Positions 6,193 to 29,173 of a stretch of DNA of 64,000 bases are shown in pieces (the stretch's first letter is position 1; every line of letters starts with the position of its first letter). The stretch is from Marsupella aquatica. Lineage: Eukaryota > Plantae > Marchantiophyta. The stretch lies in contig OZ316895.1 in the NCBI GenBank assembly GCA_973895155.1, positions 19,792,803 to 19,856,802 of the forward strand. Direction: 5' to 3'. A program made the translations under genes and the position numbers. The notes under the pieces were generated by a model, which was not told the DNA's origin, made no database searches, and worked only from the letters and a program-made list of their open reading frames with translations.

Positions 6193-6317
6193 CAAATACA
6201 AAAAATTTGTAAGTGATACACATCACATTCACTTTTCATATATATTATAATGTGTACACAACAACACTTCATCATTGAGCCTACCTTCTCTAAAGCTAAC
6301 CCCTGTTGGCCACTACT

Positions 6318-6586: not shown

Positions 6587-9500
6587 TGTTGAGGAATGAT
6601 GCGGGAAATGATAATGAGATTTCTCTCTATAGAATGAATGGGTGCATCTCTTTATATAGTCTCCGTCCGAGTTATCCTATATGGTAACTATGGTTAAGGT
6701 AACCATGGAGTCTAGTTAGGGTATAACACTCCCCCTTGGCTATATAGTGATAACTATGTAGACAAAAAGTCTTCTAACTAGATTATCATGCTTATAAACA
6801 TGGCATGATTTGAGTACAAATGAGGAAGGTACTGCCTCGTTAAAACCTTTAATAGCTCTAAAAAACTCTATCAAGGTAACAGAGAAAAAAAAATCTCGGC
6901 TCTAAAGGAAAAAGAGTACAGCCCTGTCGGTCCTCAAGTGAATCCGGTGGTATGTGGAGTTAACAGTAACAACTCCACTCCATCAAAATGAACAAGTCGT
7001 CGTATGCTCAACGACTCAACAACAATGCGACATGTCTCCAAATCGCTCACCATCGCGCATACATCCGCACATACATCCTCGCATCGAATACAAATTAAAA
7101 CATATATGAAAAAATGATTAGTAATTAAGTTATTATCATAAAATCACTTGTCCGTGGCTCATCTGCGCAAAGTGTAAAGTATAATAATAATTAATGTCAT
7201 CTCGTGCAACTGAGTGCGTAATGTATGGGATGTAAAGAGTCCGAAAGATATGATCTCCCCCTCAAAACAAGGTTTCGAGGAATATATTATTCTCATAAAA
7301 CTCAAATATCGAAACTCTCCCTTAGAGTTCAAGGACTCCTAATTAGATTCTTAAATAGAGGGTTCTTGTGCAAAATGCACAATTCGCAAGCGTGTGTAGT
7401 CGACACACAAAAAAATCTCTCAATCTTAGATTTCAAAACATGTAGTATCAAATAGTTTTTATATGAAAAATAATCTGCAGCACCAAAGAGTGTGCATTCA
7501 CAACACCAGCGGGTGTGTGTATAATATGACACGTCTGCCCTGCACGTCTGCAGTTCTCATATTTTGACAAAAAGTGTCAAGTCAATATAGCTTCACAAAT
7601 AACCCCGTGGAATCCAAACATTCAGTCGAACGTCCATGTGTGTCATAGCACAGAGAAGTGCTAGCTCAAAATGATTCGCTATCTTGCGGAGGTAAAGTGA
7701 TATTCATAAACGTCAAACAACTCTGTATAAAAATAGTTTAGAGCTAGTGATAGTCAAAAGATCCCACTTAATGACCAAGTACCAAAATGTACTCGTAGTG
7801 GGTAAATCAAGTGTGATTGGGGTTTGAGAAAATAAACTTTCTCCCCCTAAATATGCATTTTATGCATATATTATAGTTGAAAGCTAGAATTAAGTTGGAC
7901 CGAACAAAGTTATGGGGTTTGCCCATATTAACCCCTCATTACTCATTCTGATATGAGTTTACTTCGGGTTTCTAAATATTCGCAGTTAAACCCCTAAAGG
8001 GTTATTGATTATCCGCTTTTGGGTATGGCCGGAAATTAAGGTCATGGAACTAACCTGAAGTACTGTACCTTAGATTATTCTGGATTTTTCGTGAGAAACA
8101 TATCTGCCATCGATCACTGGACCTCAGAAAATCTATACCTTACCAAAATACCTCAAAAACTAGGTCATAGAGCATGGTTAAAGGTATGGTATTAGTTCCA
8201 TACTTAAAAACTATCATCCCACCGAACGATGGCTATAAAAGCTTCCGTTTGAGTTGTTTATGGTATAAAGACCATGAGGATAAGACCCTTAAGTAAGATA
8301 TTGCCCTAATGTAGGGTGTAAATGGGTGTAAAAGTTGTAAATGGTCAATTTACACACAAAAAGTGTATGGACCAAAGTTTATTCCCCTTGATGGTGTAAA
8401 TTGGTGTAAACCAGTGTAAATGCTATAAGCAAGTATAATCTGGTGTAACCAGTGTAAACAAGTATAAACCCAATGTAAAGCATGGGATTATACAATGGTA
8501 AGACATACACCAGTGTAAACTGGTGTCATGAGGTATAATCTAGAATGGTATCAATAGGTGTAAACTAGGGGTGTAAAATGGTGTAAAAACCATTTTGTGA
8601 TTGAAATGGGTGTAACAACCACTTTGTAAATGGAAAGTAGAGGTATTTGGTATAAAACCATTATTTCCAATGTGCAAAATCAAGTAAGGGTGGTATGACA
8701 TGTAAATATGTCAAATGCATGTAAAGCATGTGTTGCACATGTAAGGCATGTTAATGTATGCAAATTCAACAAGTGACATGTAATTTCCCTAAACCAGTTG
8801 ATGTGTTTACATGTGTAAACTGTGTAAATTGCTGTGTAAATTTGCAATGTGCACTTATCATTTTCCATTTCATTTGTTTATCCATAAGTGCAAAACATCC
8901 GTTGTCAACAAGATTTTCTTTGTTAATATGTGCATATATGGATAGTTTTTCAAAAATGAAGATTTTGCACTGAAGCACATGGGATTCTCTTGTCTTTGGA
9001 TAAGTGCACCCAAGCATTTGTATTTCAGAAACTCTTTACTATACTGTGCATTTAATGAGGGTTGCACTTATCTGGTGTTCGAGTTTTTCTCGAGGATTTT
9101 GAGATTGAATGTTGCATGTTTAAGTCACTCATGTGTGTCTCTTGAAATCTCACTTGTCGCTTTGGCTCATTCGTTGATTGCGATCAGCTTCTCAGGCTCA
9201 TTCTTGGACAAGCACAACATTCCATATTTAGGATTCAGAAAATGCTATCAGATCTAGACCCCACAACGATGACTTGTTTCTTGCGCTGGATGCCATCTCC
9301 CGTACGTTCACAACCAAAGCCAAGATGTTCTTCCTCCATGACATTTGCTTCTATCTTCTCCAATTTGATACGACTGTATCAAATGGCTCTTATTGGAATC
9401 TTCATTGAATCAGCAAACGACCAATTCAACATCCATGTTTGGCCTCTTGTAATGCCTATACTTCACTCGATCGTGTGTAATGGGCATTTCCTTTCATCCT

Positions 9501-10289
9501 TTATGGCTTGCAGATCGACCAACAAGAAACTGTCAGCGGTTGAGAAACATTGTGAAATTCAGGGAAAGAGAAGGCGCCTGTGTTCGTCCCTTATGAGGTT
9601 AGGGTTTTGAAAATTTTTCTTATGATCCCGATCGGGTCCTGATTTGCTCTCGATCCACCCGGCTTCATTCAAGGCTGTCTCTGTTTGGCTTCCGGTCTCT
9701 GCTCTTCTCTTTCTGCCTCTTGTTAAGGTTGTCAACTCATCGCCTCGAGTGATTTAGGTTGATCTGGCCTGGTTGGGTAGAAGGAAGCAGCGCGGCTGAA
9801 CTCGATCTCTCTTGCCTCAGCCATAGCTTTCCACTTGACTCAAATCATTGCCTTGAATACTGCTTTCCCACACGATCTTCAGAATCACCCTTCAAAACAA
9901 AATTTCTTTTGATCATATCACAGCCTTCATAAGCTTGCTCTCGGCCATAATGCTACATCATGTCGTTGCTTCAACGTGACTCATGTTCTCTTGGTGGTTC
10001 AAACTACTAGTCTTCTCACTCCCAATTCAATTCTCCTCCATAACTTGGAAATCCTTAAGAGAACATTCATTCATCATAGCCATAGGGAAATTCCTAAAAA
10101 AAAAATTCATGATCAAGCTCAGCTGGTCTAGAGTCGTGCTGATAACGTGTTGAGGAATGATGCGGGAAATGATAATGAGATTCCTCTCTATAGAATGAAT
10201 GGGTGCATCTCTTTATATAGTCTCCGTCCGAGTTATCCTATATGGTAACTATGGTTAAGGTAACCATGGAGTCTAGTTAGGGTATAACA
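6587..10289 (-). mobile_element. Non-autonomous LTR retroelement inserted in the Ulp1 domain
   Basis: 142-bp LTRs at 6587-6728 and 10148-10289 (TG..CA, one mismatch seen); TSD ATTTC at 6582-6586 and 10290-10294; PPT at 6729-6739; PBS-like CGTTATCAGCACG on - next to 10148; no recognisable pol. Confidence 0.92.
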
Positions 10290-11149
10290 ATTTCGAGCCT
10301 CCCAAAAGTTTTCTGATTTCCCCCAAAGCGAATCTAGGAACAACACCTCTTTTCCAGTTAAATCAATCACTGCCAACACCCAATGCTCCCTGTTTGCCTG
10401 GTGGATAGGGACCAATATCTTGTCATAATCAAATATGTTTTCTGTTTTGGTCCATCGAGCAACATTGGCAAAACAGTATACGGGCATTGAGAGCAACGTG
10501 TAGAATGTTGTGATGAAAAATGCACACTTTGGATAGCCTCTTGATCTCCCCCTAAACTGCAACAAGGCCAAATATGCATCGATGATATCTGAATGTAGCC
10601 ATTGAGCTGCTGTTCTTCCCGGGGTTCTTCCTTCAGACAAGCATCTCATTGACGCCTTGGTCAACTTGTAATCTACAAAGTTGAACAGTACTTCCTCGTC
10701 TAGGAGCTCTATGGATAGACATGTGGATACTATGTCGGAAAAGTCTTGAGAGCAAACTACTTCAGCAAATAACCCAGGTATCCGGGTATTCCCACCACGT
10801 GCTGCATAGGATTGAACACCATGGCATTAGGTATCATCTTCATGTGAGCTATAGGTCACAAAAGAAGGGTGAGCTATCTTGTCACTATCACTGCTGACAC
10901 TCTCACTTTCATTGTAGTCTACCTCTACTGCTCTATCATCTACAAATCTAGATTTTTGCCTCTTTGTGTACTTCTCAGCTACACCCTTGAGCCGTTTGAA
11001 GGGGCATGAATCAACAATCCCTTCTGCGTAAGTTGGAAGGCAAAATCTTTATGTCCGACAGAAAGGTTTTGATGTTTCCTCCCATGCTTCACGGACTTTG
11101 TTCTTGTCCGATGTGTGCCATTGTTCGGACTCGATGTTCCTATAGTGAA
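10290..11149 (-). pseudogene. Ulp1 protease exon, N-terminal part with catalytic His and Asp
   Basis: WLHSDIIDAYL...FFITTFY...KILVPIHQANREHWVLAVIDL...FLDSL; the frame extends up to 11149 through two TAA codons. Confidence 0.88.
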
Positions 11150-11289
11150 CTGCCTATTGGTTAAGTAGACAGTTTAAGGTAATACCATAATAATGTGGAA
11201 CTTCACATTTTTATTGATCCTCACCATGGCACAATGTAAATTGCAAACTATCTACAACAAATGGGTTCTTGGATTCAACGTTTACTCAC

Positions 11290-11800
11290 AATCCTGAGCA
11301 TCCCCACCCTTGCCTTCTGTAGCATCCTCCTCTGAATCAGACTCAAGGACCAGCTTCTTCCGCCCTTTAGGCTTTTTAGTCTCCTTGGCCTCCTCCTTCT
11401 TACTCTCCTTGCCCTCCACCTTGGTCTGATTGCCCTGCTGCATTGAAAGGAGTTTTGACACCACTGTCAAAGCTGCTGACTCACCAAAGTAGTCATGCGC
11501 TTCCATCCCAAATACTAGTCGCCCACAATTATTGGCAGCTTTGTAGATAGCACCAAAGTGGACATTCCAAGAAAATACGATATTGCCGGGACTGGTGATG
11601 TGCTCTATGATGCATTGCAAGGTTGCAGGCGATAAGGTACCGGCTAATTTGTCTCTCACTGCATCATCTTCCTTTGTAAAATTGGATAGAGTATTGCTCT
11701 TTGCTGGGCACAAGTCACCAGTAATTGGCTTCATAAGTACCTTTGGGAGGGTCACCTCTGTACCCTTCATGGCGAATATATCCAAATGCAGATATTGAGC
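11290..11800 (-). pseudogene. Exon encoding the C-terminal half of a beta-class N6/N4 DNA methyltransferase-like fold plus a charged linker
   Basis: LSPATLQCIIEHITSPGNIVFSWNVHFGAIYKAANNCGRLVFGMEAHDYF follows the N6_N4_Mtase pattern kP..L...li...t.pGd.VlDpF.GsG....Aa...gR..iG.E....y, but FxGxG is degenerate; acceptor GACAG ends at 11801. Confidence 0.6.
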
Positions 11801-11854
11801 CTGTCACATCATGCAATATAGATTAGCAACACTAATTAACTTATCCGACATCGG

Positions 11855-12320
11855 TCCTACCTATCTCAGAGAGGCTCTCCAAGATTCCAAGTACCTATCT
11901 CAGAGAGGCTCTCCGAGATCCAAGCTACCTATCTCAGAGAGGCTCTCCAAATCCAAGCTACCTATCTCTCCGAGATGGATCCTACCTATCTTAGAGAGGC
12001 TCTCCGAGATCCAAGCTACCTATCTCAAAGAGGCTCTCCGAGATGAATCCTACCTATCTTAGAGAGGGTCTCCGAGATCCAAGCTACCTATCTCAGAGAG
12101 GCTCTCCGAGATGGATCCTACCTATCTTAGAGAGGCTCTCCGAGATGGATCCTACCTATCTCAGAGAGGCCCTCCAAGATGGATCCTACCTATCTCAGAG
12201 AGGGTCTCCGAGATGGATCCTATTTGAGAGAGGTTCTCCTACCTATCTCAGAGAGCCTCTCCGAGATCCATGGTACCTATCTCAGAGAGGCTCTCCGAGA
12301 TGGATCAGGCTCTTTGAGAT
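11855..12320. repeat. Palindrome array B (intronic), about 12 copies at 34-bp period; resumes at 19859-19965 after the copia insertion
   Basis: Unit approximately CCTACCTATCTCAGAGAGGCTCTCCGAGATGGAT. Confidence 0.92.
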
Positions 12321-12675
12321 TGATCCTGTTGGGTATTTACTCTTATGTCTAGGTTAGGTATGATGTGGTTGGTACAACAACGTGGGTTGGTACAACTATG
12401 TGGTTAGGTACAACTACGTGATTAGGTACAACTATGTGGTTAGGTACAACTACATGATTAGATACAACTATGTGGTTAGGTACAACTAAGTTGCACACTA
12501 TATCATAAGAGGCATGTGTGCTTGGAGAGGTAGAACCAAGGCTCATTGTTATGGAGCCACTTGAGAGATAGGGAGAGCTTACACTGTGGAGACTCGATGT
12601 AGCCGACGGGTTTAGAGTTCAGTAAAGCTCTCTTGTGTGTTCCCGTGGACGTAGCCTCAAGGAGGTGAACCACGT

Positions 12676-14435
12676 TGTCCGGGTGACCGTATTTTCTGGC
12701 AAGAGCATGTTGGCTCTTTTGAAGTTAACCTTGCATGCTCATAAGTTCTACACTAAAATCAAAATGATAATTCTAGTAACAAGGGTAGTGGGTATTAAGA
12801 AAGGTTCAGATCCATGACTTCAATAAAGGACAAAGATGATGCACTCCCACTCCTCTTGGTACGACACCACTGGGTATATTATTGGCTCGTTAGAAACCAT
12901 AACAGCAGTTGCAAACTGAGCTCCAAAATGATAGGTTAGATGTTGCCTCATAGATCGTTTATCTAAAAGATGGACTCTAATCAAAAACGGAATACGAAGG
13001 GGAAGATCAGGGATAACTCTCTCTCCTGGATTCATGATGGCTCTCCTATTCCTTTGCTATCCGGGCCAAAGGACGCCCCACCCCTATATTCCCAAAGAAA
13101 CCTTATTCCCTAAGGTCCCATCTATAAGTCTACCACTCATTCCTTTGCTATCCGGGCCAAAGGACGCCCCACTACTATGTTCAAGGCACAAAAGAGCTTC
13201 ACAACCTTGAATGATAAACACTGCAGAATGAGGGGAGAGTGCCCCTCACCACTTTATTTATAGTGCACACCAAGAGGGCATGGATCAAGCCCAAGCACTT
13301 GGATGAAGGCCAAGTGTCAAACATCTAATACCAAAGAGTGTGCTAGTACTGTTCATAGTTGGTGAAACTACTTTTAGTAGGTGAAACTACCATGCGTTGG
13401 TGGAACTACTATGCGTTGGTGGACCTACTGTGCGTTGGTAAAACTACTGTGCGTTAGTAAAACTACTATGCGCTGATGGATCTACTGTGCGTTGGTAGAA
13501 CTACTATGCGTTGGTGAATATTATTGTAGTTGGTGCTACTCATATGCATTGGTGGAACTACTATAGTCCGTTAATATAGCTAAAGAGTTTTAATAAAATC
13601 TAAATTTAATAATCTAACTACTAAATTACTTATATAATCTATAGCATATTAAAACAAACAATTTTTTATAACTTAAGAGAAAATCACGATATATCACCCC
13701 TACCAAACCTGTGCATCCTCCGGTATGCACCACACCTAGAATCGTTATATGTCTTCTTCATCTAAAGCCTCATAGTCGTCGGGTTCAAACTCTTCCTCTG
13801 TCACAAATCAAGTTCGTCGTTTAAACAATTTCACTCGCTTCCCTGCATAGGGATTGCGATGAATTGCTCCATCAAGTTCTCTTACCACATATGTTGCATT
13901 AGGACGAACCTCCTCCACCACAAATGGTCCTCTCCAACGACGTGCAAACTTCTTCAGAGTAGAATGTTGCTGTTCCAATCCTCCCTCATAGATCAAGACC
14001 CAATCTCCATTCTGGATGGGAATTGGTCTCAAACGATGGGTCTTGTCAAATCGTTCCTTATTCTTCTCACGAGCCTCCTTTAGCCTTAGTAACGCCTCCT
14101 CAATCTTCTCCTTGGTCTGGCTAAAGTGCTCAATCCTTCGCTCTAGCAACTTTTCTCGGGAGATTCTATCTTGCCATTCAATCATCCTCCAACTCTGAAC
14201 ATTTTTCTCAATCGGCATCAAAGGCAAATGTCCAAAGACTAATTCGGCAGGCGTAATTCCTGTTGTGGTAGTGCATGTCATTCAATCTGCCAAAAGAGCA
14301 AATGGTAGAAGATTGGGCCAAAGCGATGGTTTTCCTCGGTAAGATTTCACCAAGGCATTCACTATTGGTGGGTGCCCTCGCTCAATCTTTCCATTTCCTT
14401 CTGGGTTGTAGGCAGTAGTGAGTTTGAGCTTGATG
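12676..14435 (-). mobile_element. Truncated Ty3/gypsy fragment (3' LTR 12676-13696, PPT, integrase C-terminus) inside the copia 5' LTR
   Basis: TTAYNPEGNGKIERGH...GITPAELVFGH...RWRGPFVVEEV (integrase core end and GPY/F motif); purine tract GGTAGGGG on - immediately before TGATATAT at 13696. Confidence 0.85.
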
Positions 14436-14927
14436 TTGAACCGGTCAAAACGATTTCGACGACGAAGGGTGGTAAGGGGTTTTGAGGGTTCGAGGACATG
14501 TGTCAGCCCCTCGATTGTTCTTCCAAAATTCCCACAGGGCCTGTACAAGGGTCATAGAATATTCCAAAAAACCAGAGAGCTATTTTTTGACCGTCCGACA
14601 AAGATTGCATCCGCCGAACGGTAACTTTTTTGGTTATTTTTTGGCGAGGTCGTAGCCATTGAAGTTGGCAAGCGGCGCACCAATCACATTGCAATTCTGA
14701 CAACGGGTTGTACTTGGTATTTCGGTTATTCCCTGAGGTGGTCAAAACGGGGGAGTTTCCCAAGGTTTTACCCACCTCGACCGAAATTTGAATAACTTTT
14801 CCGTCAAATTTTGATTTTGATTTCGGTTTTCAGTATTGGACTCCTAGCTTTGTGGGCTACGCGGCGGTGTTGAGTTTTGAGTTTTTTGAGAAGTTGTGAA
14901 AAACAACATTTTTTGTGATTTTCTCAT

Positions 14928-17900
14928 ATGAATGATTCGGAGGAGTTTTTCGAAGACGTGGAACTTGAAGCACGAGGATCACCGCGGAGGTTTCAGGGGC
15001 AGAGAGAGGAGCAGGAGGAAGAGCACGTGACACCGATACCATCACCGGTGCGGCGTGTGGTGGAGGAAGCTGTACTACTACCGGAGCTCACGGTAGTGCC
15101 AAAGAAGAAGATGGGGACTTTCAAGCTTGGGGGACCCAAGTATGAAGTGACAAAGTATGATGGGCGCTCTGACTACTTGCTATGGGAGAAGCAGGTGAAG
15201 GGAGTGCTCTATGCGTCAGGGATGGGCCAATTGCTGAGCCCTCGTGAAGACGATGTTGATGAGAAACAATGGGACCGCATGCAGGAGCAGGGAGTGTGGT
15301 GTGTTACACTCTATCTCATGCCTCCCATCATCAAGCAGTTGGGTGCACATAAGGATTGCATGTCCTTGTTTACGGAATTGCAGAGCAAGTATCACCGCAA
15401 GGAGTTGTCGAACCGGCTCTACACTTCCTACAAACTGATGAGTTTCAGGATGAAGGAATCCGGTACGAAGTTGCAAGACCATGTGGATGCTTTCAACGAC
15501 ATGGTCGTTGACTTGGAAAACCTTGGGGAGACTTTGAATGATGAGACGAAGGCTCTGCAGCTTCTTAGTTCATTGCCTCCATCTTACCAGTCCCTATCAC
15601 GAGTGTTGTTGCATCGTGATAGGGATACCATTTCATAAAATGACGTGGTAAGTTCTCTGCTTAGTGATGATCTTCAGCAGAAGATGCACATCACGTCACA
15701 GCCTTCATCATCTGGTGCTGCCCTCAATGTTAACCGTGGAAGGAGTATGCAGTGACCAACTGGGGACCGTAGAACCCAGTTTAGATCTAAATCCAGATCT
15801 AAGTCCAAGGGTAAATCCCCTCAGAGGAGGCAGGTGACATGTTGGAAGTGCAACCAAGTTGGACACTTCAAGCGAGACTATAAGGGAAAGGCAGCGGAAA
15901 CTTCATCGGCAAATGTGGCTAGGGCTGATGGAGAAGCTGATTTACTCAATGATGAGTATGTTTTATGAAGTCGGGGGTATGCCCTGTGCACGTCATCTAG
16001 GAGAGTAGATGATGTATGGATTCTTGATTGTGCTTGCTCTTTTCATATTTGTTACATTCGTGAGTTTTTCAGTTCTTACTCTGTTTCAAACAGTTCAGTT
16101 CTGATGGGAAATGATCACTCCTGTCAAATTGAGGGAATTGGGTCTGTGAAGATTAAAATGTTTGATGGCGCTGTGCGCACAGTGTCCGAAGTCAGGTATG
16201 TACCTGGCATGCGTAAGAATCTGATTTCACTCGGTGTGTTGGATTCAAATGGTCATCAATGGAGCGTTATTGATGGTGAACTTCAAGTCAGGTCGGGAGA
16301 GACAGTGATTTTGAAGGGGAGTAGACAAAAGAATTTGTATGTGTTACAGGGCAATACTGTATGTGGAGAGGCCAATGTAACCAAGTCTCACGAGGAGATG
16401 ACTCAACTGTGGCATTCATGGCTAGGCCACATGAGTGAGAAGGGTTTGGCTATCTTACGGAAGAATGGACTCATTTCTGATTTGCAATCTTGTAAATTAG
16501 AGTTTTGTGAGCATTGCATTCTTGGAAAGCAGCATCGTCGTGCTTTTGGTGTTGGAACTCATCGTTCCAAAGCGGTTCTTGAGTACATACATAGTGACGT
16601 GTGGGGTCCATCCCCGACTCCCTCACACTCTGGAAAATTATACTATGTATCATTTATTGATGATTACTCAAGATTTGTGTGGATTTATTTCATGACGCAT
16701 AAGTCTGATGTCTTGTCCATTTTTAAGAAGTGGAAGGCCTAGGTGGAGAATCAGACTGGAAACACGATCAAGTGTTTGGATACAAGGGTGAAGAATCTGA
16801 GGTCAGACAACGGCGGGGAGTACACTTCAATGGAATTTGAAGAGTACTGTTCAGAACAGGGGATAACTCGCCATCTCACCATAGTTTATACTCCGTAGCA
16901 GAATGGTGTCGCTGAGAGACTCAATCGGACACTGTTGGAGCGGTCATGGAGTATGTTGAGCCAATCAGGTTTACCACAAGAATTTTGGGCAGAAGCTGTC
17001 AATACCGCAGCTTATTTGGTAAATCTTTCTCCTTCTAGTGCTATCAATTTCAAAACGTCGTTTGAGATGCGCTATAAGCGGCAAGCAGACTATCATGGCT
17101 TGGTAGTTTTTAGAAGTGATGCATATGCTCTCACACCGAAGCAGAATAGGATCAAGTTGGATCCTACCTCCAAGAAATGTGTTTTTCTTGGGTACCAGAG
17201 TGGTGTGAAAGCCTATAGGCTATGGGATCCTATTGCCTGTAAGCTCGTTGTCAGTAGGGATGTTTCCTTCAATGAATCCAGATTATTGAAGGAGGGGGAG
17301 AATACTCAGGTCTCCCGTACTGACAAAGGAAAATCTTCTATCCCGGATCTCGTTGAGGGGGAGATTGGTTATGAGGTGCATGACCGGAGAGAAGGAGTTG
17401 CTCCAATTATGGAGCTGGTTCCTGTGCCAGAGGAACCAGAGGAGTTTGTTGATGCTAGTGAGCAGCAAGTGGATGTTGTTGAGCTTCAAATTGTACCAGC
17501 ACACACAGATCAACCGGAGTCATCGGCTAGAAGAACATTTGGTCGCACTGTACACGCTCCACCAAGGTATGGACAGTGGGTTGATTCATCTCAACTGCAA
17601 GAGGATGATTTTACAGCTGATGATGAGGGTGATGCGTTAATTTTGGAAGAAGGGGAACCTTCTTCATTTCATGAAGCAAGTGCTTCAAAGGAGAAGCATA
17701 AGTGGACTGCAGCAATGCAAACGGAGATGCAGTCACTAAAGGACAACAAAACTTGGGAGCTTGTTAAGCTGCCTAAGGGTCAGCAAGTGGTGGACAGCAA
17801 GTGGATTTATAAGCTGAAGGATAATTCCATAGGAGGTGGATCGAAAGTCTACAAGGCTAGGTTGGTAGCAAAGGGATTCACACAAGAGAAAGGTGTGGAT

Positions 17901-19213
17901 TACAATGAGGTCTTCTCACCAGTTGCTAAGTACTCTACAATACGACTATTGTGTGTACTTGTTGTAATGTTTGGTCTGCTGCTAGATCAGATGGATGTTG
18001 TCACAACTTTCCTCTATGGCACATTGGAAGAGGTGATCTTCATGAGACAACCGCTAGGTTTTGTGAAGAGAGGACAGGAGGAATTGGTTTGCAGATTGCT
18101 GAAATCCTTGTATGGGTTGAAGCAGTCACCAAGACAGTGGAACAAGCGGTTTGACGATTGGATTCGGTCACAAGGTTTTCACATAAGTGTATTTGATCCT
18201 TGTGTGTATTTGAAACCGGTAAAGAATGTTGTCTTTGGGTTCATTGTTTTAGTACTTTATGTGAATGATATGCTAATTGCAGCCAAGGATAGGTGTGAGA
18301 TTGTTAAGCTCAAGGCACTGCTTAGTGCAGAGTTTAAGATGAAGGACTTAGGGCTAGCTAAGAGGATTTTGGGTATGGAGATCACTATGGACTTGGAGGC
18401 TGGCAAACTATGGTTAACGCAGAGCAGTTATGCGAGGAAGGTAATTGCAAGGTTCAACATGGGGAATAGCAAGCCAGTAAATACCCCGTTGGCTCCACAC
18501 TTCAAGTTATTATCAGCGTTCTGTCCTACGGATGACATAGAGAAGGGGTTGATGTCAAAGGTTCCGTATGACAAGGCAGTGGGGAGTCTCATGTATTTGA
18601 TGACTTGCACTAGACCTGATCTTGCCATGGCTATGGGCAAGGTGAGCAGGTACATGTCAAATCCAGGGAAGGTACACTGGGAAGCAGTGAAGTGGATTAG
18701 TACTTGAAGGGTACCGTGGATCATGGTCTTTTATTTGATGCGAATGCAAAGAATGCTAAATCATTGATTGGCTATGTTGATTCTGACTATGGACAAGATT
18801 TGGACCAAAGGAGATCAACAACAGGATACGTGTTCACACTTGGCGGTGGATGCATAAGTTGGAGGTCTACTTTGCAGAAGTGTATTGCTCAGTCTACTAC
18901 AAAAGCGGAGTATGTTGCAGCTGCAGAAGCAGCAAAGGAAGCAATTTGGTTGGATAGACTTATCACTGAAATGGGATTGCCACAGGGGAATGTGAAGCTC
19001 CATTGTGATAGTCAAAGTGCGCTCCACCTTGCTGTGAACCAGGTGATGGACAGCAGAGTGAAGTACATTGACGTCAGGTATCATTTTATCAGGCAGACTG
19101 TGTCTGATAATTTGTTTGAGCTAGTCAAGATTGATGGTAAACTCAACCCGGCTGACGCATTTACCAAAGTGATTCCTTTGGAGAGTTTCTTTAGACACCG
19201 TGACGTATTGTAG
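14928..19213 (+). pseudogene. Copia gag-pol (gag, zinc knuckle, protease, integrase, RT, RNase H) with several stops and frameshifts
   Basis: [74 protein letters not shown]. Confidence 0.95.
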
Positions 19214-20001
19214 GTTTTGCAGTTGCATCATAAGTAGAGTTTTCTTAACATTCATTATAATTACTGATATATGCTCTTCCTCATTCCTATGTATTAGGCT
19301 ACGGCTTAGTTCTGGTTTGCTCTAGTTAGAGAGGGAAACCGGTTTGGTTTTTGTCCAGAACTTCCCGCTGAGGGATCATATACATTGGCAGTATTACTCT
19401 CCCCTAGACCAGAGTCAAGGGGAAGATTGTTGGGTATTTACTCTTACGTCTAGGTTAGGTATGACGTGGTTGGTACAACAACGTGGGTTGGTACAACTAC
19501 GTGGTTAGGTACAACTACGTGATTAGGTACAACTATGTGGTTAGGTACAACTACGTGATTAGGTACAACTATGTGATTAGCTACAACTAAGTTGCACACT
19601 ATATCATAAGAGGCATGTGTGCTTGGAGAGGTAGAACCAAGGCTCATTGTTATGGAGCCACTTGAGAGATAGGGAGAGCTTACACTGTGGAGACTCGGTA
19701 TAGCCGACGGGCTTAGAGTTCAGTAAAGCTCTCTTGTGTGTTCCCGTGGACGTAGCCTCAAGGAGGTGAACCACGTATCTCTTGTGTCGACTATTGTGCG
19801 TTGGATGGTTCATGGGCTTGCCGTTGCGATCGTCGTCTATGCTCAACAGATCCTACCTATCTTGGAGAGCCTCTCCGAGATCAATCTTACCCATATGGGA
19901 GAGGGTGTCCGAGATCGTAATTGTGGACACATTTTTCAACTATCTCGGAGAGCCTCTCCGAGATGACTTCTATTGAAATGCCAAAATTAAAGTGAACTTA
20001 C

Positions 20002-23000
20002 AGCTTTTTTGCTTGATACCATGTAGCAAGGTGTGTCATTCCAAATGGTGAATGAGTCAATGTGATCCAACTTCTCAGCCCAGTCAATGTGAAGGTACTC
20101 AAAGATTGAGTCTGTGTGGGCAAATAAACCACTGTGCACGCACAAGAAACCGTCGTTTGTGAGTAGAGAGTCTGCCAATGTCGTCGCCACTTCTAGGTCA
20201 CTGAGCCAAAATCTATTCCACACCGGAACATTATTTTCAGCCTGCGCTATGCGATAATCTGTCCCTAGCTTAACAAAGATCATATCACAACCATGGCCCT
20301 TAGGTACACCATCAACTATCCAACCTTGTTTTTGCAAGCCAACCAACTTCAATTTCTTACACCAGTCCCGGAATTCCCTCATGAATGGAGGGAGAGGCAA
20401 CTTTCCCATGGTTGGCTGGTATTTGTCCATCAACCAAGAAGAACACTCTAGTAAGGTCATATGCTCTTTTGCATGGCAAAATCGCAGAGCAGATGTAATA
20501 GCATGAGAGGGCCGAGGTACTCCCAAAATTTTGCAAAGATCATCCTCCGGAATTTTTGGGGCTTCTATTGAAACTGGCTTCTTTGTGGGTTTGTCTATTC
20601 TCTTCTCGGCTTTCTTCTTTGGCCGACTGGTTGGCTTACCAGAGATCTGTGGTTTGCTTGGGGTCCCACTTGGGGTCCCGCTTGGGGTTGAAAGGTCAGG
20701 CTCCTCCTCCTCCTCATGGCCCTCTGCATTGTCCCCGGTGGCCATCTGATCCTCCTCTCCATTGTCCCACTCGCCGCTTTCTCATCCTCCTCTCCATTGT
20801 CCCTGGTCTTTCTCGGCTCCATCTTCTCATCCATTGGACAACGTTTGCTTGAGGTAGACCCTTGGGTTCCAATCTTTTCTTTACTTTTTTTTGTAGAACA
20901 AAGTAAGGAGTTTAGTATACATTTTACAATGATACTATCTCGGAGAGGCTCTCAAACATAGGTCAGATGTACAATGTAAGCTAGGGTGTAAACCTTACAT
21001 GGAGTGCCTTGTTCTGAGGTGGTGTCTTTTGATTCCTTTTCTTTCTTCCCCCGAACCTTCTTCCCATCATACCCTGGCTCTCCAAGAGGCAAAATGGCCT
21101 CCAAGTCCAATGCAGCCTTTGTCGACTGCTCAAGATCTGGCAACTTTGAAGGCGCAAAAAGGTTGTCTGGTAGTTTCCCTTCCTTTAGGAGGTTGGCAGC
21201 TTCCTTCTCTTTGGGCGTAATGAACTCAATCCAATCATTGAACTCCATGAATCATGGACAATTTTATCTCTCCCAGTCTAAAAAGACTCTTGCTGCTGGC
21301 TTCAGCCCGTCTGTTGGATACATTGACAGCGGGCCTTTCTCCGTCATCCATGCAGTTAGAGCACTTGGTAACACTTTGAAAGTAGAGGCTCCAATGCTCT
21401 CCTGATGAAGTAAATATCTGACCACACACCTCTTTGCACGCTTCCTCCACACATCTTTGCTTTGCTTTGCTGGATTCCACATCTTATTGCCCTCCTCATA
21501 GGACCGAGTCTGTACAAATTGCTTGTAAATCTTGTTGTGAAACTCAACAAACTCGTCTTTGCTTCCATTGAAGTTCTGCCACTCACCATAATCATATGCA
21601 CTCTCGGCAAACTCTGACATGATCAAACTGCCAACATGGGCAATGTAACACCACATTGACCACACTAGCAACCAAGCTCTCACTGCTAAATCACCATATA
21701 CATCTGGATGGTGGTATCACTTATTATCCTCCGCGGTTGAGAAATGAACGCGTAGTAACTTGTTTCGACACTCAGCAGGCATCACTGCACTTGCAAACAA
21801 TTTAACTCGATCCAACCCCACTTGCACTTGTGGCCGATCTTTTTGTTTACTCTGCAACTGGTGCAGCTCCTCGGCAATCTCCAAAAATTCCTCTCCATTT
21901 GCTGGATTGACAATCTGAGCAAACTTCTGCATTTTGCCCTCCCAAGACCTACAGGCTTCACTCGTCATGAGTGCGGTTTCCTTCTGGAACTTATCCGAAC
22001 TCCAGGCATGGCCAATTGCAGCATCGGTTGCCATCTCCTTCGCAAGACAAATCCTCCCGTCTTCAATATTATTCCACGACATGATGTACACAATAGCATC
22101 CTTTGTCATGCACTTGCTATAGCATGTCTTTCCATGCCCATGGCTTCTTGCTGCTAAGAATCTAGCATAACCATCCGGATGAAGCAATGTTTGATACTCC
22201 TCCAAAGGTGTCATCAACAACTTCTTCACCCTGTCTGCATCGGTCAACCAAGATGTCTGCACAATGTTTGCGCTTATCTTGCGTAAAAGAAGCGACAAAT
22301 GTTGGCGTCAAAGGCTATGTACAAGCAAATTACATCTCTGTCAGATGCTCTCCGAGAAGGCATGGATATCTCGGAGAGGCTCTCTGAGAAGGCATGGATC
22401 TTCAAGAAGGCATGGATATCTCAAAGAGGCTCTCCGAGAAGGCATGGATCTTCAAGAAGGCATGGATATCTCGGAGAGGCTCTCCGAGAAGGCATCGCTC
22501 TCCAAGAAGGCATTGATATCTTGGAGAGGCTCTCTGAGAAGGCATCGCTCTTCAAGAAGGCATGGATATCTCGGAGAGGCTCTCTGAGAAGGCATCGCTC
22601 TTCAAGAAGGCATGGATATCTTGGAGAGGCTCTCCGAGAAGGGAAGGTTCTTTCTATCTCAGAGAGCCTCTCCGAGATAGCATTTTGAGTGCCAAACATT
22701 GTATGTGTGTATGTATCTATCTTGGAGAGCCTCTCTGAGATAGGATTGCCTATGTGGGTGCAAAAGAACGACAAATGCAAGAACAACCAAAAACCAAGGG
22801 GGCGGTCACTTACGCATTGAGGCCGTGCATTTCCTGCTCAATCTTCCTGAATCCTTGTTTTCCAGGTTGTAGAAGAGAGAATCTCATGCAAGGGTGGTAC
22901 TTCTGCTCGTCAAGATACTCTTCAGCCACTTGTCTCCATGCATTCAGGCGATGATTTCCATCAAACACCCAAAACATCTTACCCTTCAAAACATGAAACT

Positions 23001-23486
23001 CCTCGTACTCATCACACTCCATCTCAATTTTTGCGTTAGCTTGTTCCCATAGAGGGTCCCAATCCGCGGAAAATTCAGACAGGAGTGGGTGGCGTTATGC
23101 GCATTGGTCTCTGATATGTGGAATTCCCAAAACTTGTCCACATACCCATTCTTCACGAAGTCCTTCTTCATCTTGAGAATGGAACTCTGTTGGAGAGTCC
23201 AAACTGCCTCCATTGTCATCAAACGACATAGTGGAATCCAAGGTGGCTCTCTGGGCTTCCCGCTTGGTTCAGCTCCGAATGAAACCAAGTACTCCCCAAC
23301 AATCCCCTCGAATGCACCTTTGTTCAAACGTTCACCAGACACATTTTCAAAGTTCAGAACCTTCGGCTCCAGCTTCTTCACTGTGTGAGTTTCCCGACCA
23401 CTGGCGGTGCTCTCTGTTGTCTTTGATCTGGTCTGCCGACCAGACAATGAAGGAGAGGGAGTGGGTTGCTTCCTCTTCCCTGTCAT
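20002..23486 (-). pseudogene. MULE cargo gene, 5' exons: ParB/Sulfiredoxin-like domain, unknown helical region, N-terminal half of MTase-like fold
   Basis: ATG at 23486; WIPLCRLMTMEAVWTL...KDFVKNGY and FWVFDGNHRLNAW (ParB/Srx GxHR motif); ORFs 21717-22298, 21264-21683 and 20952-21248 share one frame broken by point stops; CDMIFVKLGTDY...DSLLTNDGFLCVH...FTIWND resembles MTase motifs IV-VII; donor GTAAGT at 20001 joins 11800 in phase 0. Confidence 0.7.
22345..22742. repeat. Palindrome array C (intronic), about 8 copies, mostly 50-bp period
   Basis: Unit approximately GGCATGGATATCTCGGAGAGGCTCTCCGAGAAGGCATCGCTCTTCAAGAA, inside the intron that opens with GTAAGT near 22813 on -. Confidence 0.9.
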
Positions 23487-23519
23487 TTTCAAACCTCACC
23501 AACTACTGAATTGCACGAG

Positions 23520-24000
23520 CGCAACTTGCACAGCACTTGCACTGCCCATAGCTCAGTCGCAGCAAGCTCAATCACTGGCAGTGGCATAACACACAACACA
23601 ATCACACTACTTGCACAGCACTCGCACCGCACCGCCACAGGTCATCGCACTCAATCGCACCGCTTCCACCACTTGCACTCACAATCGCACCGCTTCCAGC
23701 ACTCATACCACCACAACTCAGTCGTAGCAAGCTCAATCACTGGCAGTGGCACAACACACAACACAATTGCACCGCTTCTAGCACTCGCACCACCACAACT
23801 CAGTCGCAGCAAGCTCAATCATTGGCAGTGGCACAACACACAACACAATTGCACCGCTTTCATAGCACTCGCACTTGCACCGCCACAGGTCATCGCACTC
23901 AATCGCACCGCTTCCACCACTCGCACTCACAACCGTACTACTTCCAGCACTTGCACCACCACAGCTCACAGCACACAGCTCATAGCACACAGCACACGGA
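23520..24000. repeat. CA-rich degenerate tandem repeats upstream of the cargo-gene ATG
   Basis: Repeated blocks CTCAGTCGCAGCAAGCTCAATCACTGGCAGTGGCACAACACACAACACAAT and CACTCAATCGCACCGCTTCCACCAC. Confidence 0.75.
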
Positions 24001-24589
24001 GAGGGAAAGATCACAAAGCAACTTACGCTCTCCGAGAAACATGAGGTCTTGCACTCGCTCGGCCTCAATTGCTCGCCTTTCAAATGAGGAAAGGCAAGAG
24101 ACGGCGGGGACTCACCAAAGTAGTCATTATCATCATTAGGCAAAGGAAGATCTAGGGGCATCACAACTGAATTCACTATTGCCGTCATGCAGGTCGAGTC
24201 CCATCCAAGCAACGGGAGATCTATGGGACCACTCATTGATTACAAGTGGTAGGGGCCACGGGAGGAAGTTGACATGTTAGCAGTTTATTGGCTTATATGT
24301 AGTCGTACTTTGATAATGATGAATGCCTAGATTTGACTCATGTCAGAGTTGCAACACTGAAGTACCTATACAGATGCTTTCATTATTACTCCCCCTTCAC
24401 GCTATAATGTCCTTGGTACGATTGACTCCAGACCAGATAAGGTTTCCTATCATTCCTTGGTATTAATGAGTACGATCGCTCAACGACCGGATTTAATTCC
24501 AAAAAATATACAGTACTCACATGACATGTCAGGCCAGTCTCAACTTCCTCATTGTCTCCAAGATGACATGTCATGCCAGCTAGGACCCA

Positions 24590-25866
24590 TGTCAGAGAAG
24601 CTCTCCACTCTGACATATAAAGTCGGGACTTAAGTCGGAGAGGCTCTCCAAGATGACATGTCATGGAGGACCCATGTCAAAAAGGCTCTCCGAGATGACA
24701 TGTGTGGGGACTTAAGTCGGAGAGGCTCTCCGAGTTGACATGTAAAGTGGGGACTTAAGTCGGAGAGGCTCTCCGAGATGACATGTAAAGTGGGGACTTA
24801 AGTTGGAGAGGCTCTCCGAGATGACATATCATGGAGGACCCATGTCAGAGCCTCTCCAAAATTGAATATACACAAGATCAGACCTTGGAGAGGCTCTTTG
24901 AGTTGACATATCAGGTTGGTGATAACTTTGGAGAGCCTCTCTGACAAATATTGGGCCTAATCCTTGCTACACACCTGAAGATGGCATCTCGAAGAGCCTC
25001 TCCAACATGGGTGGAGACTTCATACCTGCGCAAGATGGTATCTCGAAGAGCCTCTCCAACATGGGTCAAGGCTACATACCTCCACAAGATGGCATCTTGG
25101 AGAGCCTCTCCAAGATGAAACTTGGTGAGATCCGGTGCAAGATCTAATCTCGGAGAGCCTCTCCAAGATGGGTCGAGGCTACATACCTCCGCAAGATGGC
25201 ATCTCCAAGGAGGTGTTTACAAAAGACAGCAAACAGGAAACAAGATTTAATAACAAAACTGGTAACAGGAAAATGGGTGAAAAAAAAATTTGAAATTTTT
25301 TTTGAAATTTTTTTTTGAGAAAAAAAAAAGGTTTTTTTTCAGTCGACCAGTTTTTTTTGCTAGCGCCCAAAGCTAGCCAAAAATGTTGCATTGTTAATTT
25401 TTTTTGGAAATAACATGTTTTAGGAGACATTTTTAAATTGTCATTTTTCCTGGTAACAATGATTTTTTCCTGGTAATTATAGCATATTGAAAACAGGAAA
25501 AAAAATTCTTGTTTACCTGTTTCCTGTCTCCATCGCTATACCCTCTCCAAGAGCCTCTCCAAGATGAAACTTGGTGAGATCCAGTGCAAGATCTAATCTC
25601 GGAGAGCCTCTCCAAGATGGGTTGAGGCTTCATACCTCCGCAAGATGGCATCTCGGAGAGCTCTCCAAGATGAAACTTGGTGAGATCCGGTGCAAGATCT
25701 AATCTCAAAGAGCCTCTCCAAGATGGTTCGAAGCTTCATACCTCCGCAAGATGGTATCTCAGAGAGCCTCTCCAAGATGAAACTTGGTGAGATCCGGTGC
25801 AAGATCTAATCTCGGAGAGCCTCTCTAACATGGGTTGAGGCTTCCAGATGGCATCTTAGAGAGCCT
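24590..25866. repeat. Palindrome array D between the divergent cargo and transposase genes, about 20 copies in at least two unit types
   Basis: Units GGGACTTAAGTCGGAGAGGCTCTCCGAGATGACATG (about 42 bp) and GATGGCATCTCGGAGAGCCTCTCCAAGATG (about 54 bp, alternating spacers). Confidence 0.9.
25210..25543 (-). mobile_element. MITE family A, copy 2, inserted into one palindrome
   Basis: 8-bp TSD TCTCCAAG at 25202-25209 and 25544-25551; reverse complement similar to 3064-3382. Confidence 0.88.
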
Positions 25867-25974
25867 AATGGACACCCTAAACTTAGTCACTGTCACTAAT
25901 AGTTTTCATGCTCACTCACAAGGGTACATTGTCAAGAAGGATTCTCACATATTCAACGAGGGAAGAATATTTGT

Positions 25975-26345
25975 AACAATTTTTACGCTCGGTCTGGGCG
26001 ATAAGGTACTCTGACAAAACAATCTTGACATATTCAACAAATAAAGAAGCGAGTCTAACAATTTTTACGCTCTATCTAGGCGGTAAGGTACTCTGACAAA
26101 ACAATCTTGACATTCAACAAAGAAAAAAGCGAGTGTAACAGTTTTTACGCTCGGTCTGGGCGATAAGGTACTCTGACAAAACAATCTTGACATATTCAAC
26201 AAAGAAAGAAGCAAGTCTAACAGTTTTTACGCTCCATCTGGGCAGTAAGGTACTCTAACCAAACAATCGTCACATATTCAGAAAGAAAGAAGCGACTCTA
26301 ACAATTTTTATGCTTTGTCTGGGCAATAAGGTACTCTAACAAAAC
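25975..26345. repeat. About 4.5 copies of an 80-82 bp tandem repeat upstream of the transposase
   Basis: Unit AACAATTTTTACGCTCGGTCTGGGCGATAAGGTACTCTGACAAAACAATCTTGACATATTCAACAAA.AAAGAAGCGAGTCT starting near 25975, 26057, 26137, 26219 and 26300. Confidence 0.85.
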
Positions 26346-26477
26346 AAAGTCATAAGAATCAATAACAGTTTTCACATACTGTTTGTTGATTAAGTTACGC
26401 TCTTGAGAAACAAAGAGGAATTGAGCAAGCCGGAAAGGCAATAACATCCCTTACATGAACGAGGCATCTCTCGGTGG

Positions 26478-29173
26478 ATGCCACTTGAACTCTCTTGGTG
26501 CTCATTTTTAGTCTTTCTTCAAGTGGTTATCATGGCTGGCCATGTGAGGATCACGTTTCCAGACAATGGAGACGTTGTTGTGCTAGCGACTGATGGTGTT
26601 GTTCGGCATACACCAGACAACAAATTAGCTCCTCGGTTTGATGTTGAGATTGGGGAGTGGGCACTCTTTGAGGCCGGCAATGTCTTACCATTGATTGAGG
26701 CAAACTCAGAGGAGAGTGGAGAGGAAAGGATATGGCATCTAAAAAGTGAAGTTTTGTACGTCCTTCAGCAGAGGGTGTACTCTGTTCCTCTTACTAAAGT
26801 TGGTTTGCAATCTCAAACTGGAGAGAAGATTTCAGAGTGGCCGGCAGAGGTAGAGCAAGCCGAATTTCTTGAAAGTGTTATTGCTGCAATGCTCAAAGGG
26901 AAAGGCACTTTGCGATGTGTAAAGGCTGCCCATTCCATTCTCAGAGTGCATTATCCCCAACAAGTCATGACTCTGCCGGAATGGTATGATGGGGATTGCA
27001 TTTTTGAGCTCCCCGCATTCACAGGTATCCACACAAAGGGTGCCTTCTTCTTGGGTATAGAGCAAATAAATGACTGCTACTTGTGGAGCAAGCTCATCGA
27101 GATAGGGGCCCAAATTGGACCCAACGTGAACAAGGGAGGCTTCAAGTATAAGATTGGGAATGTGAGATGCCTGGGCTCTTTGCAATGTCCACATTCAGAT
27201 TGTCCGGCTTTTACAAGTAAGAAGAGCGCAATTGCACAGAATGGCAGCGAGATAGGGGTGGGAAAAATGAGGTTCCATTTCTTGTTGGGCGACTAGTTCT
27301 AGCAGAGAGTGTGATTTGCGACTTTTGTGATCGGCCTCCTAAGTGTATAGCCAAGTGTCCAGCCAAAATGTTCTACATCACTCCGACCTCTCATGACCAT
27401 TATATTTACAAGCACATGACACGTGTTGCTATGCATGTTGGGAGTCACTCACATCCGGCCAAATTTGTTCTCAAGAAAGATCGAAAAGCTTTCTTACATA
27501 AGTTGATGGAGGAGAAATTGAAGAAGAATCCTCATGCAATGCCGTCTGTGATCAAGAGTGATCTAAGGGATATTTTTGATGACAAGGTTGCTGGGATTGT
27601 CACATTTGAGGAAGTACGGGATCTGAATGAAACATTGGCAATCCTATCAAATCGATCAGTTGTAAGATCTATGATACAGAGCATACGCAAGTATACCCAT
27701 GCCTCATCCAACCTCCAAGTCATCCTTGATCTTCAAAAAGAAACAATGTTTTCATTTGTCAAGAGCACTCTATTTCTAAACCAGAAGCTAGATACAGATG
27801 AGCGCCCACATATTTTCAAGATGACTGTAAAGGGTCCAGGGTCTGGAATCAATCTCATTCGAAGGATGCAGCCTGGTGGAGATCTACAAGACTCATGGGT
27901 GATGTTTGATATCATGCATCGGATGACTGAGAGGCAATGGTACACAATGTCAGCTCATGTGTACGACCACCTATACAGAGGTCTCTGAACAATTTTTATA
28001 TGCGAGCTAGTTTCGGAAGATACTGCTGCACTACAAACTACATGGAAGGTCATGAAGCGAGTGTGTAAGGCAAATGGGCTTGACAATGTTACGTTTTATG
28101 GGTTCATTGTCGATAATACTGCAACTGGGTGGAATGCAGTTCAAAACACATTCTAGGATGGAAGAGTTAATTCTCAAAAGGAGCAATCTGATGCATTTCA
28201 CTAGGCGCAATCAGTGGAGAAGATGATAAAGAAATGCATTCTTCCTGGCAAAGCAGTTGAGCATAAGGAGCTTCTGGATTCATTGAGGGACGCTGCCAAT
28301 GTGGTTCTTGCATTTTGGACTTTTGAGAAGATGAAGGATTGGTGGAAAAATGGGAATGCAATCAAAGGAAAAACCAAGTCACTAGAGACATGGCTTTCGT
28401 GGTGGATTGTGCGGTTCTCCCAATGGGGAAACTTTATTCGGCTGGTAAGTCTATGAATTCTTAGTAATATTCCATCTCGGAGAGGCTCTCCGAGATGATT
28501 AATCTTGGACATGTTAGATAGCCTCTTCGAGATGGACAACGTGGGTCTTCTCGGAGAGGCTCTCCAAGATGGAACATATGGGTAATCTCCGAGATGGAAG
28601 ACGTGGGTACGTCATCTTGGAGAGGCTCTCCAAGATGGAACATATGGGTCATCTCGGAAAGGCTCTCCGAGATGGAAGAGGTGGGTCTTCTCGGAGAGGC
28701 TCTCCGAGATGGAACATATGGGTCATCTTGGAGAGGCTATCCGAGATGGAAGAGGTGGGTCATCTCGGAGAGGCTATCCGAGATGGAATATATGGGTAAT
28801 CTTGGAGAGGCTCTTCGAGATGGAAGAGGTGGGTCATCTCGGAGAGCCTCTCCCAGATGAAACAAATGGGCGACTCGGAAGACATGTTAGAGAGCCAACT
28901 TTTATTTTGTAAACACATGGTTCATCTTAGAGAGGCTCTCCGAGATGAAACACTGGTCATCTCGGAGAGCCTCTCCAGGATGGACCCCGTTGGACATGTT
29001 GCAGATGTACACAATGACCCATGTAGAGTTTTTGGTAATAATCTTTTCTTTGATTTCTATGTAGGACATGGACAGAACTAAGTCTGCATTGATGCTAAAC
29101 CATAGCGGGGCAGAATCCGTGCATGCCGCGATGCGCCGATGGTCTTCCACAACAAAGATTGGGATAGTGCAAT
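26478..29173 (+). pseudogene. Mutator-family transposase, 5' part (GCM/WRKY-like Zn domain and DDE core); intron 28445-29064
   Basis: CLGSLQCPHSDCP...CDFC...CPAKMFY...HVGSHSHP; D1 VMFDIMHR; D2 FIVDNT; CxxH position DAFH; E in NHSGAESVHA after the phase-0 GTAAGT...TGTAG intron; stops and frameshifts present. Confidence 0.85.
28474..28981. repeat. Palindrome array E filling the transposase intron, about 12 copies at 37-38 bp period
   Basis: Alternating spacers GGAACATATGGGTC and GGAAGAGGTGGGTC between palindromes. Confidence 0.9.

Follow-up and report, generated by a model that had tools for sequence, protein, structure and literature searches.

A transposon-borne accessory protein with a predicted methyltransferase fold and a non-canonical catalytic motif in the liverwort Marsupella aquatica

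Transposons of several algal groups are reported to carry accessory genes in which a ParB-like domain is combined with a DNA amino-methyltransferase. The best described of these, in the 21.5-kb Ectocarpus element Sola1-1_Ec32, encodes a ParB-like plus N4C/N6A methyltransferase (MTase) protein, and green and red algal counterparts are cited in the same source (PMC12477816). Inactive N6A-MTase domains also have a precedent in DIRS1 elements (PMC4738411). Accessory genes of another kind are known from Arabidopsis VANDAL elements, where VANC21 is described as binding a motif multiplied in tandem in the introns and the intergenic and terminal regions of VANDAL21 (PMC5735166), and KIU (Kaonashi) genes are described as Ulp1-fused VANC genes in Mutator-like elements (MULEs; PMC13317346). 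Within the literature covered, which excluded most subscription papers, we found no land-plant transposon with a gene of the ParB-plus-methylase type. Here we describe a candidate from the liverwort Marsupella aquatica. The window, meaning the whole 64,000-nucleotide stretch that was analyzed (assembly GCA_973895155.1, contig OZ316895.1, positions 19,792,803 to 19,856,802, forward strand), contains a giant DNA transposon (5923..41060) whose second gene encodes, in its predicted intact form, a ParB-like protein with a probable beta-class MTase fold. Judged from its aligned homologues, this protein has been conserved in a state that lacks the canonical catalytic loop.

The accessory gene starts near 23300 on the minus strand, and we modeled it as the following exons and introns.

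22814..23297, minus strand: 5' exon with a weakly ParB/Srx- or DGQHR-like domain; DGNHRL at 22962-22945; start uncertain
22273..22813, minus strand: predicted intron, the sole stop-free GT..AG join found; holds a 50-bp tandem array of the palindrome described below
21000..22272, minus strand: middle exon of 424 codons, fold unassigned; three premature stops in this copy
20002..20860, minus strand: first MTase exon, encoding a charged linker and the first half of the MTase-like domain; 5' end ambiguous
11801..20001, minus strand: GT..AG intron of 8,201 bp, composed of a 0.67-kb palindrome-array intron and a Copia insertion
11290..11800, minus strand: second MTase exon, covering the rest of the MTase-like domain and a basic/acidic tail; donor GTGAGT at 11289
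10290..11149, minus strand: linker and N-terminal half of a Ulp1 (C48) SUMO protease; Pfam Peptidase_C48 E value 4.8e-16; His and Asp located by eye
6322..6586, minus strand: C-terminal half of Ulp1 with QEDSVNCG; Pfam Peptidase_C48 E value 2.3e-6, profile positions 132-206; catalytic Cys located by eye

The predicted order is therefore as listed: ParB-like exon, middle exon, charged linker, two MTase-like exons and possibly the linker plus Ulp1. The middle domain, the linker and the first MTase exon belong together, because they are joined in one 559-amino-acid (aa) protein of Calypogeia fissa (P0003). Over 408 aa the middle exon is 70% identical to an open homologue, P0001, and it shares 41% identity with P0003; it had no significant Pfam match. 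Landmarks of the first MTase exon are the motif IV position KLGT (20271-20260), PxWN, GFLCVHSG and FTIWND, and those of the second are motif X, the motif I position SWNVHFG (11572-11552) and the glutamate of motif II at 11503. A link to ParB, proposed earlier from the letters alone (the sequence-only reading), is weakly supported: the 5' exon contains DGNHRL, which may represent the G-x-x-R arginine patch of ParB/Srx-like domains, and matches phrog_1033 (ParB-like, E value 0.023) and TIGR03187 (DGQHR, E value 0.019). It fell outside the top 6 when we searched with our own hidden Markov model (HMM) built from 14 phage ParB domains, a result that counts against the link.

A search of 1.84 billion representative proteins with the first MTase exon returned 11 homologues at 28-53% identity. 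Three of the 11 name an organism, and all three are liverworts (one Calypogeia fissa and two Riccia sorocarpa), so that the accessory protein is conserved in at least two liverwort genera; none is named as algal. Our alignment (A2) held 12 homologue rows, namely 10 search matches and two cluster twins (P0013 and P0014, twins of P0004 and P0008), and 13 rows with the copy in the window; P0011 was omitted because it ends before motif IV. Word-index protein searches with the first MTase exon gave no match in either size range covered (99-317 and 318-2000 aa), and no relatives turned up in pattern scans of metagenome contigs, viral contigs or prokaryotic genomes. The earlier proposal that the gene was acquired horizontally is not established as a direct event; there is no prokaryote among the homologues that name an organism, although eight of the 11 carry no such name, being unnamed or listed as hypothetical proteins.

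The homologues also bear on the join between the two MTase exons. The peptides on which that join had been based are present in the minus-strand open reading frames (ORFs) 20781-19987 and 11803-11282, and splicing from GT at 20001 to AG at 11801 is predicted to keep the frame. Three GT/GC..AG pairs lie near these ends, and 20002|GT..AG|11800 (plus a GC donor at 20005) leaves the frame open. Similarity ends at the junction in 9 of the 12 homologue rows, after which V-S, V-R or V-I follows, corresponding to a translated GT donor. One Riccia sorocarpa gene model, P0007, crosses the junction without gaps, and its score rises from 59.7 to 66.2 bits. Contigs of sibling copies from four runs, examined over 19780-22340, covered introns and exons alike and contained no splice joints.

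Several weak and partly independent signals converge on a beta-class N6/N4 methyltransferase fold in the accessory protein, which we consider likely. When the joined profile of both exons was aligned by hhalign with a profile of 49 phage beta-MTases, motifs IV, VI, VIII, X, I and II fell in register over 211 columns, in agreement with the motif order that had been read from the sequence. (The phage profile was built from loci L019-L098, of which 56 of 80 had both motifs and were kept; dropping the 7 closest to the seed left 49.) The second MTase exon scored 26.05 by hhalign, compared to at most 16.15 for 58 control ORFs, and the family profile of the first (13 rows) scored 22.6, compared to at most 20.96 for 100 column shuffles. 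The second exon also ranked first among 755 ORFs in a broader beta-MTase HMM (5.6 bits), and its sole PHROG and NCBIfam matches were methyltransferases (E values 0.1-0.2). By tblastn, 7 of 11 weak phage matches lay on annotated DNA methylases of three phage groups (E values 4-7). In the ESM Atlas, 14 of the 30 matches to the second exon belonged to a set headed by a PF01555 cluster, which scored 0.91 and had 157 features in common with the exon; its ten best named matches share the PF01555 family or clan, as they do for one third of shuffled proteins. For the first exon the Atlas gave a lead only, with a score under 0.9. Co-folding the two exon products with ESMFold2 lent weak support, scoring 0.50 against 0.00 for the best of three controls, with contacts agreeing at 62% or more and a partner pLDDT (predicted local distance difference test) of at least 54. 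The co-fold mark was reached by 51 of 78 solved pairs and 2 of 108 mismatched pairs; scores of 0.60 or less came from only 5 of the 78 solved pairs, yet from all 4 mismatches that passed, and halves of a split gene may pass through likeness to solved folds.

Other results weigh against the fold. No single test was significant. The 211-column alignment had a probability of 11%, and a swapped exon order gave the same hhalign score, over 114 columns. Pfam scans, which covered the exons singly and the alignment members rather than the joined protein, returned no PF01555 match for either exon or for any of the 13 members. In the broader HMM, 2 of 1000 shuffles outscored the second exon, and the 157 Atlas features fall below the 170 typical of true family members. 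AlphaFold models had pLDDT values of 44 and 36; made from single exons without alignments, they are uninformative, and Foldseek found no match for them. Sequence searches of the PDB returned nothing relevant, the family profile included. The family HMM of the first exon showed no MTase enrichment among 1,077 phage ORFs, and the exon as a single sequence did not align to the phage-seeded alignment A1. The beta-MTase set was itself grown from seeds chosen for matching the second exon and is not fully unbiased; an hhalign value of 88.7% was discounted, since A1 had been seeded with phage proteins picked for matching that exon.

As a separate observation, the third-ranked Atlas match of the second exon (11450-11800) was a eukaryotic cluster recorded as Haptophyta. 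An MTase clade that is expanded in haptophytes and derived from phage ParB loci has been described (PMC4738411).

Both catalytic motifs had been called eroded. In this copy, DPPY of motif IV is replaced by KLGT, and FxGxG of motif I by SWNVHFG, in which N and H occupy the positions of F and the first G. For motif IV, the call extends to the homologues: their 12 rows read Q/S/D/I/Y-[MLIV]-[GP]-[TAM], none keeps (D/S)PP(Y/F), and canonical (D/S/N)PP(Y/F/W) occurs in 0 of all 13 rows, with neither PP nor a position-4 aromatic in any. Because it is common to all 12 aligned homologues, the loss of canonical motif IV is read as family-wide, and we rejected the idea that it reflects decay of this copy alone. 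For motif I, the SWNVHFG state (for DxFxGxG) was seen in this copy only. Across the alignment, PxWN never varies at P or W, one G is likewise invariant, and the motif II glutamate is retained in the second MTase exon. Relatives with intact motifs, which the sequence-only reading had thought might exist, did not appear among the 11 matches. From these motifs it seems probable that catalysis has been lost; the stronger description "catalytically dead" is not established, since 10 of the 12 homologues retain Q, S or D at the catalytic position (Q in five rows, S in four, D in one, with I and Y in one each).

A candidate target for the protein lies in the element's own non-coding DNA.

6000..41010, no strand assigned: 72 copies of a 23-bp palindrome, ATCTCGGAGAG-N-CTCTCCGAGAT, with up to 4 mismatches allowed

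All 72 copies are inside the element and in non-coding DNA, three introns included. The arrays stand near both ends of the element, in introns of the accessory gene, between the starts of the two genes (24600-25860) and in the transposase intron. No copy occurred elsewhere in the window, in exons, in nested elements or in five shuffles. C>T/G>A transitions have affected 65 of 288 CG positions and 12 of 144 outer CCG positions, compared to 6 of 432 other C/G positions. An excess of transitions at CG and CCG is the pattern of deaminated host 5-methylcytosine (5mC), and the counts suggest decay of this 5mC type in the palindromes.

We tentatively favor, at somewhat less than even confidence, a reading in which the accessory gene encodes a self-recognition, anti-silencing protein that is predicted to bind the arrays without methylating them. 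The intact product of the transposon's second gene would be a ParB-like, methylase-fold protein, possibly with a Ulp1 SUMO protease, and would bind the element's own palindrome arrays while leaving them unmodified. The methylase fold might be retained as a scaffold for gripping DNA or reading bases, the ParB-like part could load the protein or spread it along the element, and Ulp1 could remove SUMO from silencing proteins there. The protein would thereby help the element to escape host silencing, by analogy with VANC and KIU of Arabidopsis VANDAL elements, and it is this analogy that prompts the anti-silencing part of the proposal. One feature of the VANC/KIU type, an element-specific motif in non-coding arrays, is found here in the 72 of 72 palindromes. 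Against the proposal stand the lack of detected similarity between the accessory protein and VANC and the fact that the palindromes could be transposase sites. A more elaborate version, which we regard as unlikely, is that land-plant (liverwort-type) Mutator elements carry a second anti-silencing machine, evolved independently from bacterial components: a ParB-type cytidine triphosphate (CTP) clamp, a pseudo-methyltransferase and Ulp1. The clamp would load at the parS-like 23-bp palindromes and slide along the element, the pseudo-methyltransferase would read or shield methylated CG/CHG sites within these palindromes, and Ulp1 would strip SUMO from silencing factors.

Alternatively, the domain might still function as an N4C/N6A methyltransferase of non-canonical type and mark the palindromes of the element, in line with the proposal made for the algal proteins. 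The Q, S or D that 10 of 12 homologues have at the catalytic position, the Q of sibling copies where this copy has K, the invariant PxW, the retained motif II glutamate and the symmetry of the palindromic site would all suit an enzyme, and 4mC or 6mA is the predicted product of the Sola1-1_Ec32 protein of Ectocarpus (PMC12477816). The absence of PP and of a position-4 aromatic from all 13 rows argues the other way, as do the N and H of motif I in this copy and a palindrome decay pattern that is that of host 5mC, and we judge an active methylase improbable. A similarly low probability attaches to the idea that the transposase binds the palindromes, with the accessory protein serving as a transposition cofactor or passenger and playing no part in silencing. 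Arrays do lie just inside both terminal inverted repeats (TIRs), and MULEs often carry second ORFs that are needed for integration or have no assigned use (PMC6446971). Against this idea, arrays are also found at a distance from the ends, filling the region upstream of both genes and introns in each, and the accessory protein is conserved in at least two liverwort genera. Least probable is a chance resemblance of some other alpha/beta domain to the MTase motif order: the missing significant profile match, the low-confidence models and the empty PDB search with the family profile would allow it, but Atlas, PHROG, NCBIfam, tblastn and hhalign all indicate the same family for the second exon, the first aligns in register with the other half, a ParB domain followed by a beta-MTase occurs in 14 of 98 fetched phage loci, and ParB-plus-MTase proteins occur in algal transposons.

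The accessory gene in this window is a pseudogene of a multi-copy family. It has three stops where the homologue P0001 is open over 407 aa, a frame change in the 5' exon near 23050 (between 23070 and 23040), another in the charged linker near 20765-20773, where sibling contigs vary by single-base indels, and a Ulp1 part split by an insertion. The family is multi-copy: sibling contigs matching 19780-22340 numbered 1,110 to 3,264 per run in four of four runs, with identities from below 90% to above 99%. Where the first stop is covered, these contigs show a sense codon, and K occupies the catalytic position in this copy alone, the siblings having mostly Q (depth 6465/6763 in X1; all in X2 and X4).

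We lean slightly toward Ulp1 being fused to the accessory protein. Both Ulp1 halves exceed the Pfam C48 cut-off of 20.7 bits (59.7 and 28.1 bits), with the His-Asp-Cys triad read by eye, and an in-frame splice from the GTGAGT donor at 11289 to 11149 would lead into the linker and Ulp1; splice signal and frame make up the whole of the case. Fusion requires that two stops in the linker be read as decay, and no homologue shows it, both of which count against it.

The 8.2-kb intron that had attracted attention has comparative support, and its length is ordinary retrotransposon stacking: 7,522 of its 8,201 bases are a Copia element (12327-19848), and the underlying intron, about 0.67 kb, is mostly palindrome array. 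We therefore rejected a host gene with an exceptionally long intron, the intron being a Copia insertion and the gene lying within a transposon. That transposon and the elements nested in it are as follows.

5923..41060, no strand assigned: giant DNA transposon of 35,138 bp, with TIRs and a 9-bp target-site duplication (TSD)
5914..5922, no strand assigned: left TSD, ATTTAGTCA
41061..41069, no strand assigned: right TSD, ATTTAGTCA
5923..5975, plus strand: left TIR, imperfect, about 55 bp, from local alignment against the reverse-complemented right end
41005..41060, minus strand: right TIR
12327..19848, plus strand: Copia long terminal repeat (LTR) retrotransposon; Pfam gag, pol and RVT_2; TSD GATCC; sibling contigs have loose ends at 19848
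6587..10289, no strand assigned: 3.7-kb LTR element with 142-bp repeats (1 difference) and TSD ATTTC; splits Ulp1
25212..25540, minus strand: nested miniature inverted-repeat transposable element (MITE), 0.33 kb, with an 8-bp TSD; two further copies lie outside the giant element
29175..38405, plus strand: nested 9.2-kb element inside the transposase gene; TIRs imperfect; TSD AGTGCAATC; encodes PHD fingers and has long ORFs
26535..39950, plus strand: transposase gene, broken, in pieces 26535-28450, about 29070-29174 and 38415-39950

Subtracting the four nested insertions (20.8 kb in total: the Copia element, the 3.7-kb LTR element in the Ulp1 region, the 0.33-kb MITE and the 9.2-kb PHD-encoding element in the transposase gene) leaves a core of about 14.3 kb. 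Mutator-like elements are described as having TIRs and an 8-11 bp TSD (PMC6446971). The giant transposon is probably Mutator-like, because it has a 9-bp TSD, TIRs of about 55 bp and transposase motifs read by eye.

The transposase gene runs head-to-head with the accessory gene. Its pieces hold a Cys/His cluster, FD..FIVD..DAFH motifs seen by eye and a C-terminal SWIM-like finger, whose Pfam match (14.9 bits, E value 0.019) is below the cut-off of 19.6. By eye, the FD..FIVD..DAFH motifs may correspond to the DDE pattern of MULEs; the Pfam MULE domain had no match in this gene, even with stops read through as X. Just upstream of the transposase start lies an 82-bp tandem array of 4.6 copies (25957-26347), unrelated to the 23-bp palindrome. 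The TIRs (5947-5964 and the matching right TIR) hold a short palindrome around GATATC, unlike the 23-bp motif, which is a candidate transposase site.

Some features of the nested and neighboring elements are recorded here in their own right. The Copia LTRs differ at 10 of 347 positions, and gag, integrase-region and reverse transcriptase domains are present; the 5' LTR is interrupted at 12675 by about 2 kb of other DNA. Beyond this cut, 12676-14700 contains a tandem array with 19-bp units, together with an integrase-like fragment on the minus strand (13811-14281; MLVIN_C, E value 0.12). The element at 6587-10289 is young and has no recognized coding domain. The MITE, 0.32 kb, is present three times (3064-3382, 25212-25540 and 41559-41892), each copy hAT-like with its own 8-bp target duplication, and two of the three lie within Copia-like remnants flanking the giant element. 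Since each copy has its own TSD, we rejected these 320-bp repeats (at 3064, 25212 and 41559) as TIRs of the giant element. The 9.2-kb nested element matches Pfam PHD_NSD (E value 4.6e-8) and has long ORFs at 33877-37804 with DQPH and CCEIFFS motifs, which are reminiscent of P-element-type transposases and had no Pfam match. A second Copia element occupies 55797-63050 on the minus strand, with terminal repeats about 89% alike.

Transposons of brown, red and green algae have been reported to carry ParB-plus-methylase cargo, for which a function has only been proposed, and the present locus carries this design over to a family in which every named member is a liverwort. Added to it are a catalytic motif that is non-canonical throughout the family, a possible Ulp1 fusion and a candidate target, the 23-bp palindrome restricted to the element. 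Binding, and modification or protection, of the protein's own element thus becomes directly testable with one protein and one oligonucleotide. Should the protein prove VANC-like, it would provide a means of sequence-specific anti-silencing that arose from an unrelated source. What gives the locus its value is the protein family together with the candidate target site, rather than the decayed copy or the length of its intron.

Set beside known systems, the accessory protein may share the motif order IV-VI-VIII-X-I-II and its spacing with beta-class MTases (PF01555; M.RsrI, M.MboII, DpnA and CcrM), and an upstream ParB-like domain with phage ParB-MTase fusions. Unlike canonical beta-MTases, it lacks (D/S/N)PP(Y/F/W) and, in this copy, FxGxG, and scores below every curated threshold, and unlike the phage fusions it has a 400-aa middle domain and a charged linker between the two domains. 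Marchantia MpDN4MT1a/b and the N4CMT of bdelloid rotifers are likewise bacterial-type amino-methyltransferase folds in eukaryotes (bioRxiv 10.1101/2021.02.12.428880; PMC8885841), and MpDN4MT1 shares the liverwort context; it differs from the accessory protein in retaining TSPPY and in being an active enzyme of the host, and the available text does not present it as cargo of a transposon (bioRxiv 10.1101/2021.02.12.428880).

VANC and KIU are alike in being MULE-borne accessory genes with a short motif in non-coding tandem arrays and, in some, a fusion to Ulp1. VANC motifs, as quoted in the sources available, are unlike the palindrome in being 8-9 bp and non-palindromic, and no ParB or MTase fold is described there; KIU-carrying elements are described as non-TIR, and no sequence link of VANC or KIU to the accessory protein was found. 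Searches for VANC domains gave no Pfam match other than Ulp1 in any exon. The resemblance to KIU is in logic only. A close likeness is to Sola1-1_Ec32, so far as it is described: both are giant DNA transposons with nested insertions and a second gene on the strand opposite the transposase, and in both a ParB-like domain precedes an amino-methyltransferase domain with proposed binding to the element itself, the domain calls being weak here. Sola elements have a 4-bp TSD, whereas the carrier here has a 9-bp TSD, is Mutator-like in that respect and has liverworts as named relatives; a motif IV that is non-canonical family-wide, a following Ulp1 domain and a palindrome array are further differences. 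The string "palindrom" is absent from the main text of PMC12477816, and the algal proteins were compared by layout and domain description. Judged by motifs and domain order, the locus fails membership as a canonical beta-MTase and fits the algal accessory-gene layout.

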